DNA of 49,991 bases from Candidatus Saccharimonadota bacterium (GTDB taxonomy: Bacteria > Patescibacteriota > Saccharimonadia > Saccharimonadales > AQU-01): assembly GCA_037137935.1 (NCBI GenBank), contig JBAXJI010000005.1, forward strand, positions 1-49,991. The letters run 5' to 3'. Below the pieces are notes generated by a model. That model searched no databases. It worked only from the letters and a program-made list of their open reading frames with translations, and was not told where the DNA came from. Shown here piece by piece: positions 18,662-35,992 of the stretch; within the stretch, counting starts at the first letter, position 1, and each line of letters starts with the position of its first letter. A program made the translations under genes and the position numbers.

Positions 18662-19402
18662 ATGATTGAGGTTAACAAGCTTACAAAGGTCTACGGCAAA
18701 AAACAAAACAAGTTCGTTGCACTTAAAAATATTAGCTTTAATATACCAAACGGTTCAACGGTTGCCATAATCGGTAAGAGCGGCTCAGGGAAGTCTACTC
18801 TAATGCATATTATGAGCGGACTTGACCGTCCAGACGAAGGCACTGTGACAATCGGCGGCCACACTCTCCATAAGCTTAAGAAAAAGGCGATGGATGAATT
18901 CCGCGCCAAGCAAATGGGTTTTATATTTCAAGCATTTTTTGTAGAAGCTAATCAAACCGTCTATCAAAATGTATCTTTGCCCCTAGAGATTAGCGGAGTA
19001 AGTTTTAAGAAACGTGACACATTGATTAAGGAAGCCTTGGAACGAGTTGAATTAACAGATAAGATTAACAGCAAGGCAGGTGATCTGTCTGGAGGTCAGA
19101 AGCAAAGACTGGCAATAGCTAGGGCGATTGTAACGAAGCCGAATCTTATATTTGCTGACGAACCAACAGGAAACTTAGACAGCGCGACCGGTGATAAAAT
19201 AATCAAACTATTATTTGAATTAAATAAATCATTGGGCAGTACGCTTATTGTCGTTACGCACGACCACGAACTAGCGGCCAAGTGTAATATCATTATCACC
19301 TTAAAAGACGGAGCTATAGTATCGGTAGAAAATAGCGAAACTCCAAAACAAAAAGCTATAAGTAGCGTTAAACGAGTTCGAAAAGTAAAGGCAGTCATAT
19401 GA
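18662..19402 (+). CDS. ABC transporter ATP-binding protein (LolD/MacB-like)
   Basis: GKSGSGKST, LSGGQKQR, ADEPTGNLD, VTHD. Confidence 0.93.
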   Translation: MIEVNKLTKVYGKKQNKFVALKNISFNIPNGSTVAIIGKSGSGKSTLMHIMSGLDRPDEGTVTIGGHTLHKLKKKAMDEFRAKQMGFIFQAFFVEANQTVYQNVSLPLEISGVSFKKRDTLIKEALERVELTDKINSKAGDLSGGQKQRLAIARAIVTKPNLIFADEPTGNLDSATGDKIIKLLFELNKSLGSTLIVVTHDHELAAKCNIIITLKDGAIVSVENSETPKQKAISSVKRVRKVKAVI

Positions 19403-32430: not shown

Positions 32431-33690
32431 ATGTGTTGGAGGGAATTAATCATCGCTTTACTTAAAATACCTGCTAGTCATTCGGATGAAAAAGAAAAGC
32501 GTTTTAGCGGCGGACGAGTGACCAAAATGATAGTCGTTGTAGTGGCTATTTTTTGGCTAGGGTTATCAGTCGGACAGGGCAATATAACTGTCGGTCGTGA
32601 TGCGATATTTAAGAAGCCTGTAAGCAAAGAATCTCCAAATAATCTAGACTACACTGAAGTCGAGCAGATTTATGATAGTTTACGAGAAAACTACGATGGT
32701 AAGCTAGACACTGCTAAATTAATGGATGGGCTCAAAGAAGGCTTGGCTAAATCAGCCGGCGACCCATATACACAGTACTTCAATCCTAAAGAAGCCAAAG
32801 AATTTAACGAGCAGCTCACAGGCTCATTCACAGGTATCGGTGCTGAACTTAGCAAAGATACGACCACAAATGCAATAATAGTCGTATCACCAATTTCTGG
32901 GTTTCCAGCCGACAAAGCAGGGTTACGTCCAAAAGATGTTATTGCTGAAATCGACGGCAAATCAGCATACGATTTATCAATATCTGACGCAGTCAGTAAG
33001 ATTAGGGGCGAAAAAGGTACCACTGTAAAGCTGAGAATTATTCGTGACGGCAAACAAGATCTAACTATAGACATTGTGCGCGACGAGATAACTATTCCAA
33101 GTGTAACTTCCAAAACTCTCGACGGTAACATCGGGTATATTAAAATCGCACGTTTTTCTGAAGACACCGCTGAACTTACTAGAAAAGCAGCCGACAAATT
33201 CAAGTCAGATAATGTTAAGGGAATAGTCCTTGATGTCAGAGGTGATCCAGGTGGACTTCTGGATGCTGCAGTTTCTGTTTCTAGCCTGTGGCTGGACAAC
33301 AAGACCGTTCTAACCGAAAGACGCGACGGAATAGTCATAAAGACTTATAGCTCAAGAGGAGAGCCTACGCTTAAGAACATACCTACAATTGTCTTGATAG
33401 ATGCCGGAAGTGCCTCTGCGAGTGAAATTACAGCAGGAGCCTTGCGAGACAATAATGTTGCTAAGTTGATTGGAGTTAAGAGCTTTGGTAAGGGTAGTGT
33501 TCAGCAGATTGTTCGCTACAATAATGACAGTTTCTTGAAGGTGACTATAGCCAGGTGGTATACTCCGGCAGGCAAAAATATCGACAAGGAAGGCATTAGT
33601 CCTGACACTGAAATTAAACGATCTGACGAAGACTATAAGTCCGGCAATGATCCTCAGCTCGACTTCGCCTTAACTCAGCTCAAGAAATAA
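32431..33690 (+). CDS. S41A carboxyl-terminal processing protease (CtpA-like) with PDZ domain
   Basis: GDPYT.Y, FTGIG, LDVRGDPGG, SASASEI, KSFGKGSVQ, GISPD; start uncertain. Confidence 0.92.
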   Translation: MCWRELIIALLKIPASHSDEKEKRFSGGRVTKMIVVVVAIFWLGLSVGQGNITVGRDAIFKKPVSKESPNNLDYTEVEQIYDSLRENYDGKLDTAKLMDGLKEGLAKSAGDPYTQYFNPKEAKEFNEQLTGSFTGIGAELSKDTTTNAIIVVSPISGFPADKAGLRPKDVIAEIDGKSAYDLSISDAVSKIRGEKGTTVKLRIIRDGKQDLTIDIVRDEITIPSVTSKTLDGNIGYIKIARFSEDTAELTRKAADKFKSDNVKGIVLDVRGDPGGLLDAAVSVSSLWLDNKTVLTERRDGIVIKTYSSRGEPTLKNIPTIVLIDAGSASASEITAGALRDNNVAKLIGVKSFGKGSVQQIVRYNNDSFLKVTIARWYTPAGKNIDKEGISPDTEIKRSDEDYKSGNDPQLDFALTQLKK

Positions 33691-33750
33691 GTTTTTTGGT
33701 CCACTAATGTGATCAGCTTCTGCCACTTTTGGTTCGGACAATAGCTTACC

Positions 33751-34214
33751 GTTACTTTTGTTTCGGCAAAAGTAACACAAAACCGAGGGGCGATGTCTAC
33801 TTCTTGATACAGTCTCCAGTCAAGCCTGACAACAAGAGCGGACGACTCCTTACAGTCGGCCAGCAAAGTAATCCATTGAGTTTGCTGGCAAGTCCACTCC
33901 AATAGTTGTCAGTTTGACGAGACATGTATCAGGAAGTAGTCAGGCCCCAAATAAGACCAAGGGCGCCCGCTGGAGGCGGGCAATATTTAAAATTATGATT
34001 GTCTTTAGCAATCATTCCATGGTCTTTGGTGGGGCTTGGCGACTACCCGAAATAGATTCCGACAAGAGCACAACAACACTACCTGCCGAGGACTGTCTGA
34101 AGATGCGAATGCATCAAGTTCCGCAGGCTGTGTTGTGCTCCTTGTTCGGAAGCTATATCGAGTTGGTGCCACCGCCCCTCGGTTTTGCGCTACTTTTGCC
34201 GAAACAAAAGTGGC
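33751..34214. other. ~465-bp highly structured non-coding element with 42-bp terminal inverted repeats (MITE-like element or large ncRNA)
   Basis: 33751-33792 matches the reverse complement of 34173-34214 at 38/42; three long internal stem arms; higher GC than the flanks; no credible ORF. Confidence 0.8.
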
Positions 34215-34384
34215 ATAAAAGTAGTCCACAATGAAGTATTGAAATCTTATGCAAAAGAGAAGCAAATATTTAAGTTCTATCCAGCCAGCCAGATTGCAGG
34301 GTTGCAAATTCTACACTTGCCATAAGCATAGAATGTAAGGTAGTATCTATTAAGTAAAGTTCGAAAAGAGGGGTAGAGTAACAG

Positions 34385-35992
34385 GTGTCCAGACCTACTA
34401 AGTATATTTTTGTTACTGGTGGTGTGCTTTCCGGATTAGGAAAGGGCATAACAGCCGCCTCAATCGGCAATCTCTTAAAGGCCCGTGGCCTCAATGTAAA
34501 TATCCAGAAGTGCGACCCTTACTTGAATGTTGATGCCGGACTATTAAACCCTCGTGAACACGGCGAATGTTTCGTAACTAAAGATGGCGCAGAAACCGAC
34601 CTCGACCTTGGTCACTATGAAAGATTTTTGGATCAAGAGTTAACTTCGTCAAGTAGCTTAATGAGCGGACGAGTCCTTCTACAGGTTATTCAAGACGAAC
34701 GCGCTGGTAAATATGACGGTGAAGATGTCCAGATTATTCCGCATTTAACAGGTGCAATCCAAAAATACATCATGGAAGCAGGCAAAGGCTTTGATGTTCA
34801 TATTATTGAAATTGGCGGCACAGTAGGCGACTATGAATCACTTAGTTTCATTGAGGCTATCCGCGAAATGGGAATTAATGTTGGACGTGATAATTGTCTC
34901 TATGTTCATGTTGTCTACCTGCCGTTCTTAGGTGCAAGCCAAGAAACAAAAACCAAGCCAGCTCAAAACTCTGTACGAGAATTACGGGGCTTGGGAATTG
35001 CCCCAGATATTTTAGTTGGTAGAAGTGAGAAAAAGGCTAACAACGGTGTTAAAACAAAGCTAAGCCTGTTTTGTGGTGTTGCTGAAGACGCTATAGCCTT
35101 ATTACCAAATGCTTCGTCCATTTACGAAGTGCCGTTAACTCTAGAAGACACCGGTATTGCTGATGTTATTTGCGACAAGCTAGACCTAAAGGCCAAAAAG
35201 CCAGACCTTAAAACCTGGAGAGCAGTAGTCAAAAGAGCGACCAGCAATCACAAAAATAAAGTTACAGTCGGAGTTGTCGCTAAATATATGGACAACACCG
35301 ACACCTATATGTCAGTCTTTGAGGCGTTGCGTTCGGCAGCATTATGGAACGATGTCGATCTTAAGATACGCTGGATTGATTCTGAAAAACTCAAGAACGA
35401 TAAGGATATTAAAAAGGCTTTTACCAGTATTGACGGTATAGTTGTGCCAGGTGGTTTCGGTAGTCGAGGCTTAGAAGGCAAGATAAAGTCTGCTCAGTTT
35501 GCGCTAAACCAAAAACTTCCATATTTAGGCCTGTGTCTTGGATTACAAATGGCTGTTGTGGCTGCAGCAAGAAATGCAGGATTAAAAGACGCGACTTCTG
35601 CCGAAATGGACCCTAAAGGCAAAGAGCTGCTTATTAATACAATGTCAGGCCAAGAAGGTAAGGAAAACACCGGTGGCACTATGCGACTAGGTAATTATCC
35701 TTGTGTTATCGAGAAGGGAAGTTTGGCAGCTAAACTTTATGGTACTACAAATATCATAGAACGACATCGTCACCGCTACGAATGCAGCAACGACTACATA
35801 GACCAGTATGAGTCCTGGGGAATTAGAGCGGTTGGTAATTCGCCTGATGGTCGACTTGTTGAAATGATAGAAGGCACAGATCATCCGTTTTTCTTGGCGA
35901 GTCAATTTCATCCAGAATTTTTGTCTAGGCCTAATCGCCAGCATCCAATGTTCGCTGGTTTTATAGTAGCCTGTAAAGACCGTAAAGATTGA
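34385..35992 (+). CDS. pyrG: CTP synthase
   Basis: KYIFVTGGV.SGLGKG, ETDLDLGHYERF, PGGFG.RG, GLCLG, ERHRHRYE, QFHPEF. Confidence 0.98.
   Translation: MSRPTKYIFVTGGVLSGLGKGITAASIGNLLKARGLNVNIQKCDPYLNVDAGLLNPREHGECFVTKDGAETDLDLGHYERFLDQELTSSSSLMSGRVLLQVIQDERAGKYDGEDVQIIPHLTGAIQKYIMEAGKGFDVHIIEIGGTVGDYESLSFIEAIREMGINVGRDNCLYVHVVYLPFLGASQETKTKPAQNSVRELRGLGIAPDILVGRSEKKANNGVKTKLSLFCGVAEDAIALLPNASSIYEVPLTLEDTGIADVICDKLDLKAKKPDLKTWRAVVKRATSNHKNKVTVGVVAKYMDNTDTYMSVFEALRSAALWNDVDLKIRWIDSEKLKNDKDIKKAFTSIDGIVVPGGFGSRGLEGKIKSAQFALNQKLPYLGLCLGLQMAVVAAARNAGLKDATSAEMDPKGKELLINTMSGQEGKENTGGTMRLGNYPCVIEKGSLAAKLYGTTNIIERHRHRYECSNDYIDQYESWGIRAVGNSPDGRLVEMIEGTDHPFFLASQFHPEFLSRPNRQHPMFAGFIVACKDRKD

Follow-up and report, generated by a model that had tools for sequence, protein, structure and literature searches.

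In a 49,991-nucleotide stretch of DNA from a Candidatus Saccharimonadota bacterium (the window), the spacer that separates pyrG (34385-35992) from a ctpA-like gene for an S41 peptidase (32431-33690) contains a segment, 33751-34214, that folds into an almost fully base-paired, four-arm structure. An earlier note had interpreted this segment either as a single new noncoding RNA of about 465 nt or as a non-autonomous mobile element. We asked whether the segment is one functional unit, and whether it acts as RNA or as DNA.

The fold itself was confirmed. In the minimum free energy (MFE) structure, the closing stem and three arms formed exactly where the earlier note had placed them, and the folding energy was significant on both strands: -247.6 kcal/mol for the plus strand (z-score of -18.5; 100 shuffles with a mean of -133.6, none of them as good) and -248.9 kcal/mol for the minus strand (z-score of -21.0, equaled by no shuffle). 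The closing stem, 33751-33792/34173-34214, indeed contained Watson-Crick pairs at 38 of its 42 positions. Its mismatches had been taken to show a plus-strand excess of G-U pairs, but on that strand they comprise two G-T (33752/34213, 33753/34212) and two A-C mismatches (33775/34190, 33777/34188); this even split therefore indicates no plus-strand wobble bias in the stem, and the family-wide count described below was likewise symmetric. Mechanical ORF calling placed reading frames of 42-106 aa across the segment.

Searches with RNA models gave no assignment. With Rfam 15, the whole window gave no covariance-model match at the gathering score, in agreement with the absence of tRNA, tmRNA and RNase P hallmarks that had been noted from inspection, and the strong Rfam match that would have removed the element's novelty did not arise. 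The region 33500-34500 gave only two chance-level miRNA matches (E of 4-8), and 20 other homologous loci (searched as 4 + 10 + 6) matched no family beyond an unrelated SAM riboswitch and bxd_7 at an E of 0.16. A promoter and terminator scan called neither in this copy. We also searched the genome for 6S RNA and found no RF00013 match, a result with no bearing on a multi-copy element.

Comparison with other copies resolved the first part of the question. The 465-base structure is two tail-to-tail copies of a dispersed, hairpin-forming repeat of about 235 bases, and not one large RNA gene. The two copies, unit A and unit B, form a convergent pair (Table 1). The proposal of a single four-arm RNA as the conserved entity was thus not borne out, since the halves were found alone and with genes between them.

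Table 1. Features of the unit pair at 33751-34214 and its immediate flanks.
Feature	Position	Strand	Basis or remark
5' extension of unit A	33718-33750	+	truncated P1 (5' arm and 6-nt loop, 33722-33737), then 13 nt
Unit A	33751-33981	+	joined tail to tail with unit B
P1 palindrome of unit A	33751-33776	+	10-bp arms, 6-nt loop TTTCGG
A-rich linker and CCGA of unit A	33777-33786	+	complementary to P1 loop, with which it may form a pseudoknot
Rod of unit A, arm type A	33787-33948	+	MFE, copy alignment
Class I apex of unit A	33840-33859 and hairpin 33861-33897	+	replaces canonical junction motif
T1 hairpin, end of unit A	33965-33981	+	GCCCGC-TGGAG-GCGGGC; terminator-like in many copies
Pair junction module	33982-34015	.	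AATATTTAAAATT and AT-rich hairpin T2 (33995-34015)
Unit B	34016-34214	-	joined tail to tail with unit A
Rod of unit B, arm type B	34031-34178	-	MFE, copy alignment
Canonical apical junction motif of unit B	34087-34122	-	GGAACT-(hairpin)-TCAGACAGTCCTCG
Linker or pseudoknot partner of unit B	34179-34188	-	loop-linker complementarity
P1 palindrome of unit B	34189-34214	-	motif map
Degenerate remnant of outer hairpin hp0, unit B	34215-34236	-	hp0 precedes P1 in many copies

In general, a unit of about 235 nt may open with a GC hairpin on its outer side (hp0), which often has a T-run. In order, there follow the palindrome P1, an A-rich linker, a rod of about 160 nt, an apex, a short spacer and a terminal GC hairpin (T1). 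Rods come in two arm types, A and B, and the apex is either a canonical junction, GGAACT-(variable hairpin)-TCARACAGTCCTCG, or a "class I" variant. In many copies the terminal hairpin is followed by a T-run; the T1 of unit A has none, and the terminator scan made no call there. The gap between hp0 and P1 is only 6-9 nt, and the sequences upstream of it are unrelated among copies. Within the genome under study, hp0-like hairpins occurred only beside units, one tRNA-like site excepted. The truncated P1 in the 5' extension of unit A is broken exactly after its loop, and this extension could instead pair with 34199-34218; units of the GTTAC type in two other genomes of the genus, G001 and G002, are preceded by the same extension. 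The same junction module was found in the other cargo-less pairs with a visible junction (G000 C19 end, where G000 is the genome under study and C denotes a contig; G001 C38 and C63; G002 C1 and C2), and part of it was present at G001 C48. The local P1 hairpins absorb the mismatches of the closing stem better than the stem itself does.

The earlier note had called for homologs and for covariation among them, and both proved to be abundant. In an alignment of 29 copies that covers the genus (four genomes), compensatory changes were observed in 16 of 46 consensus pairs, and P1 was kept in every copy, with compensatory CG to UA changes; most of the compensatory differences separate the two arm types, and they therefore represent few independent events. 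Across phyla, the P1 loop was complementary to the end of the linker in many different, covarying sequences. In 81 distinct units (after removal of redundancy; 85 rows before one window change), the match between a loop and the linker of its own unit averaged 4.4 nt, as compared to 3.31 +/- 0.11 nt when loops were re-dealt among units (200 trials, maximum of 3.59). The linker also tracked the purine arm of its own P1, with a longest shared stretch of 6.2 nt vs 5.0 nt for other units, as a mirror image in 35 cases and a direct copy in 18, with 28 ties. This pattern of P1 and linker would be compatible with a pseudoknot in which P1 is joined by a third strand. The P1 loop measured 6 nt in all units found, a constancy that is partly circular because the search script required that length.

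Wobble pairs in the rods were symmetric, with 394 G-T pairs in the forward and 359 in the reverse sense (172 copies, counted arm by arm), and therefore make no call on which strand folds, nor on RNA vs DNA. The MFE preferred the strand opposite to the P1-to-T1 direction in 143 of 163 copies, and the MFE folds contained 850 vs 592 G-U pairs. Two copies (L018:628-907 and L033:1501-1781) carry an extra hairpin of about 60 nt just before the junction motif, either a nested insertion or a variable apex. In several genera (L057 to L061, L065, L068, L071 and others), the inner hairpin of the junction measures about 40 nt and has a GCCACYGGC-like loop that is conserved, and such copies may form a sub-family with an extra conserved tip.

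We compared the ctpA-pyrG site and other copies among relatives. All three other genomes of the genus (G001, G002 and G003) carry copies. Among 37 genomes of other genera, BLAST gave full-length matches in none and core-only (apex) matches in three, which belong to other families and have the same unit architecture. The same pair occupies the ctpA-pyrG spacer in G001 and G002; in G003 the spacer contains hp0 and a unit, about 390 bp, and a unit and hp0, with hp0 intact on both outer sides. An empty ctpA-pyrG site, which the earlier note had suggested seeking in relatives, is present in the sister genus (G004), where the spacer is about 100 bp long and lacks the element. Unit B was 97.4% identical to its ortholog in G001 and 93.4% identical to that in G002, whereas third codon positions of the flanking genes were 80-83% and 73-82% identical, respectively. 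The inner hairpin has undergone a compensatory change in the G002 ortholog of unit B, and the G002 ortholog of unit A has its apex swapped for another class. This conservation above third codon positions speaks for selection, for gene conversion or for a recent exchange. Most copies in the genus lie at orthologous sites and thus show no sign there of recent transposition, and their high conservation could reflect a host function or gene conversion and not mobility. For a single unit, no clean pair of a filled and an empty site was found.

In a genome from another family of the order (G325), pairs again consist of a canonical and a class-I-like unit. The outer P1 types of these pairs differ (x+y, y+x, x+z), so that their ends cannot form the long closing stem, which is thus not a conserved feature; this further weakens the view of the segment as one entity. 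No direct repeat indicative of a target-site duplication flanked six aligned G325 pairs.

A BLAST search of the element against its own genome (808,545 bases, 34 contigs) returned 48 pieces, which a motif map resolved into 14 units and one solo hp0-P1 module. All of these copies are intergenic, and their orientation to neighboring genes varies. Four contig ends fall within units (C13 end, C14 start, C18 start and C19 end), and the assembly breaks at these places because of the repeats. Parts of the same units are found at C13 end and C18 start, and at C19 end and C14 start, so these contigs probably adjoin. Contigs assembled from four DNA runs over 33000-35000 also break inside the element, which makes them uninformative on expression or excision; none of them joins across it, and no joined, element-free form was seen among them.

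The genome contains four convergent A+B pairs, two of them with cargo: the pair under study, the C19/C14 pair, a C1 pair around a C39-like peptidase gene and a C13 pair around a type I restriction-modification island. The latter is bracketed by units at C13 10807-11040 on the plus strand and 19109-19329 on the minus strand. The island itself spans about 8 kb (G000:C13:11114-18212), with hsdM/S/R-like ORFs named by eye. On the same contig, a heliorhodopsin gene (PF18761, E of 6.5e-82) lies between two units (G000:C13:9983-10762; L007:1742-2521, minus strand). Other units in this genome flank small genes of unidentified product. At the C1 locus, G000 has an A unit, the peptidase gene and a B unit, and G001 and G002 have a cargo-less pair; at the C4 locus, the site is occupied in G002 by a unit of another arm class. 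Pairs of A and B with the same junction were present at six or more loci in the genus. Among loci from other phyla, neighboring copies up to 3 kb apart were convergent in 13 of 15 cases, direct in one and divergent in one; convergence was seen both where cargo genes intervened and where they did not. In G003, a rod-less pair (L031:1440-1545, G003:C4) joins hp0-P1-linker to an inverted linker-P1, as if the center of a pair had been deleted. A record labelled Sulfuricella (L123:2101-3435) has an IS4-family transposase gene (NF033590, 314 bits) exactly between convergent units, and inverted repeats of about 20 bp adjoin the units that flank it.

The junction motif extends well beyond the genus. 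Of 401 genomes sampled from the order, 67 contained the exact motif (55 of 255 genera), at 1-12 copies each, and a reversed-pattern control gave no match in the same 401 genomes. A scan of 185,579 species genomes (596 billion bases) found at least 120 loci, with record titles spanning many phyla, against about 70 chance matches expected under a uniform composition. However, among the scan matches listed, TGC lay just 5' of the motif in 126 of 134, and flanks able to pair were present in 119 of 127, which argues that these matches are not due to chance. Six viral contigs carry seven motif matches, five of which appear to be genuine when judged by TGC. Outside the order, many copies have a simple form, a rod of 25-50 bp with the junction and without P1, and others carry the full P1/pseudoknot module. 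One copy is in frame within a glycosyltransferase ORF; another is in frame within gpmI of a Gracilibacteria-labelled record (code 25), where it accounts for about 25 extra residues relative to solved iPGM structures. The ORFs across proteobacterial copies, which we considered spurious, contained no meaningful Pfam family, and a betaproteobacterial copy had no match at an E of 1e-5 in plasmid and phage record collections.

The earlier note had also suggested looking for a mobilizing enzyme beside homologous copies. Clustering of neighboring genes (156 loci, 614 ORFs) revealed no recurrent protein family, transposase or recombinase; the largest cluster, of ABC ATPases, involved seven loci. Genes for Y1/RAYT proteins were found in 26 of 67 element-positive genomes vs 84 of 334 element-negative genomes, where the 84 include two Y1-positive, element-negative genomes flagged as unpublished (G307 and G340). 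Three RAYT-like Y1 genes are present in the genome under study (C5:426-1046, one on C26 and one on C23). The first, on the plus strand of the window, encodes 206 aa, scores 30 bits with PF01797 and 35.8 bits with NCBIfam REP_Tyr_transpos (whose cut-off is 80), and is flanked on both sides (96-425 and 1047-1140) by repeated GC palindromes of the GCAGGGAGACTCCCTGC type that are unrelated to the A/B units; the other two each have palindromes of their own, again different from the A/B units. RAYT/Y1 proteins were rejected as the mobilizer because of these unrelated palindromes and the weak co-occurrence (41 of 67 element-positive genomes lack Y1). Searches of this genome likewise turned up neither a TnpB domain (PF07282) nor a reverse transcriptase (PF00078), nor any relative of the L123 IS4 transposase.

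These results suggest that the repeats are probably a non-autonomous, paired-end, palindromic mobile or recombinogenic element, of which 33751-34214 is an "empty" pair. The family would be of the REPIN, MITE or Rickettsia palindromic element (RPE) kind. Its working form would be a pair of units with their P1 ends outward, able to bracket cargo genes, and what is recognized and maintained would be the folded single strand, rather than the sequence of the arms. Movement or recombination would depend on an enzyme supplied in trans, and in this host the element may now also serve as a boundary or terminator-like module between genes. In our best reading, the pair is kept by selection or conversion and marks boundaries of gene flux. 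The proposal of a non-autonomous mobile element therefore held in part: copies are numerous and break contigs, the sister-genus site is empty, cargo varies and in-frame copies exist elsewhere, but no mobilizing enzyme was linked to them. More tentatively, the repeats may represent a hitherto unrecognized class of paired-end hairpin elements that spans phyla and whose ends are set by a folded strand, not by terminal sequence, with a triplex-like pseudoknot on the outer side and a near-invariant three-way junction at the tip of a rod of free sequence; such a class would move or recombine through a widely shared factor, bracket restriction-modification, heliorhodopsin and peptidase genes and settle in frame in essential genes.

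A review treats the nearest known kinds (PMC10969869). Bacterial MITEs (Correia, ERIC, RUP/BOX/SPRITE) have conserved terminal inverted repeats and a variable center, and in most cases they duplicate their target and can be assigned to a parent IS; like them, the present units are non-coding, repeated and strongly folding, and MITEs can also have terminator-like portions, occur clustered or nested and affect neighboring genes (PMC10969869). In contrast to a classical MITE, the center is conserved and the arms are variable here, and neither a target-site duplication (six G325 pairs) nor a parent IS near copies was found. Pairs have inverted ends of about 42 nt (P1 and linker); single units are unlike-ended (P1 vs T1). 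RPEs are palindromic repeats that are also found in frame inside protein genes (PMC10969869), as some of our copies are. The setting differs from that of RPEs in that all copies in this genome are intergenic. To our knowledge, RPEs are confined to Rickettsia and its relatives, and we know of no enzyme that mobilizes them.

REP/REPIN sequences and their RAYTs offer a close parallel, being intergenic, multi-copy and hairpin-forming, with a recurrent inverted doublet that persists at orthologous sites, and RAYT-like genes are present in this genome. However, the units here exceed REPs in length about 10-fold and have both a pseudoknot module and an apex that is conserved; the junction motif is common to many phyla, whereas REPs are known as lineage-specific; and the Y1 genes are flanked by palindromes other than the A/B repeats. 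Palindrome-associated elements derived from IS200/IS605, which transpose as single-stranded DNA, likewise have two ends that differ from each other and carry subterminal hairpins; they lack terminal repeats and duplications, and a hairpin region in them is complementary to a segment close by. Here, however, the hairpins at the two ends, P1 (5') and T1 (3'), are not alike, the co-occurrence with TnpA/Y1 is weak, no TnpB was found in the genome and no IS605-type Rfam RNA was matched. Integron attC sites and plasmid pdif modules are folded or palindromic, bracket single accessory genes and exist in empty and filled versions in relatives. The ends of attC sites, which measure 28-141 bp, are conserved and their center is variable, the reverse of what we observed. 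Likenesses to the hairpin ribozyme, K-turns, IHF sites, dif sites and rolling-circle nick sites were also considered and dropped; none seemed a good fit.

Alternatively, the repeats might be a structured RNA family, either small RNA genes or cis-acting 3'-UTR or intergenic modules (terminator, insulator or exonuclease block), which we regard as somewhat improbable. Transcription would then run from P1 to T1, a conserved RNA-binding factor would recognize the 5' pseudoknot and the apical junction, and the pair would be two back-to-back modules, a scheme that appears doubtful to the same degree. Such a family would fit the covariation that keeps P1, rod, inner hairpin and pseudoknot, and the mirror relation of the linker to the purine arm of P1, which resembles that in triplex pseudoknots, but in-frame copies within ORFs and pairs that bracket cargo are unexpected for RNA genes, the rods lack the strand bias in wobble pairs of typical RNAs and the MFE mostly prefers the opposite strand. 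Similarly, the T-runs after terminal GC hairpins in many copies, and the hp0 with T-run ahead, would suit transcription units, yet no conserved promoter was found, the copy studied here received neither a promoter nor a terminator call, and no Rfam family matched. Ortholog conservation well above synonymous sites and the intergenic location of all copies in this genome are also in keeping with RNA, whereas their lying in either orientation to neighboring genes is not.

The repeats could also be cassette recombination sites, a view that we consider quite unlikely. A tyrosine-type recombinase would then use P1, with its inverted arms of 10-14 bp and constant 6-bp spacer, as core site; convergent pairs would delimit modules open to exchange, like those of integron attC or plasmid pdif, and 33751-34214 would be an empty module. 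This would explain why the truncated P1 at 33722-33737 is broken exactly after the spacer, why hp0-P1 also occurs alone and one P1 pair lacks rods, and why cargo is present or absent between identical brackets with the arm class swapped at one orthologous site; the uniform 6-nt spacer also agrees with it, within the limit set by the script. Nevertheless, neighbor clustering linked no recombinase, and the conserved rod, the junction motif, the covariation of loop and linker and the P1-less copies with rod and core would be left unexplained. That the four-arm fold itself is the functional unit, as a single 465-nt RNA or DNA cruciform, is highly improbable, because, even though the whole is 43 kcal/mol more stable than the separately folded halves (-112.8 for unit A and -91.1 for unit B) and A+B pairs recur with the same junction in the genus and as canonical and class-I-like pairs in G325, units also occur singly or up to 8 kb apart, and the closing stem is not conserved in G325 and has mismatches that fit local P1 hairpins better.

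For annotation, the results carry a warning that large, ornate RNA-like folds can be repeat pairs. No account of the family was found in Rfam or in the literature that we searched, and it may be named elsewhere. If the family is undescribed, a 20-base motif is identical from ultra-small Saccharibacteria-like genomes to those of Proteobacteria, Nitrospira, Firmicutes-type, Bacteroidota-type and Spirochaete bacteria and some viral contigs, and identity over this range implies a shared factor that recognizes it. The repeats also offer a compact natural fold for structural study, with a pseudoknot bearing a mirrored A-rich strand, a long rod and a conserved junction. For these organisms, the family marks hot spots of accessory gene gain and loss and explains assembly breaks in their genomes.
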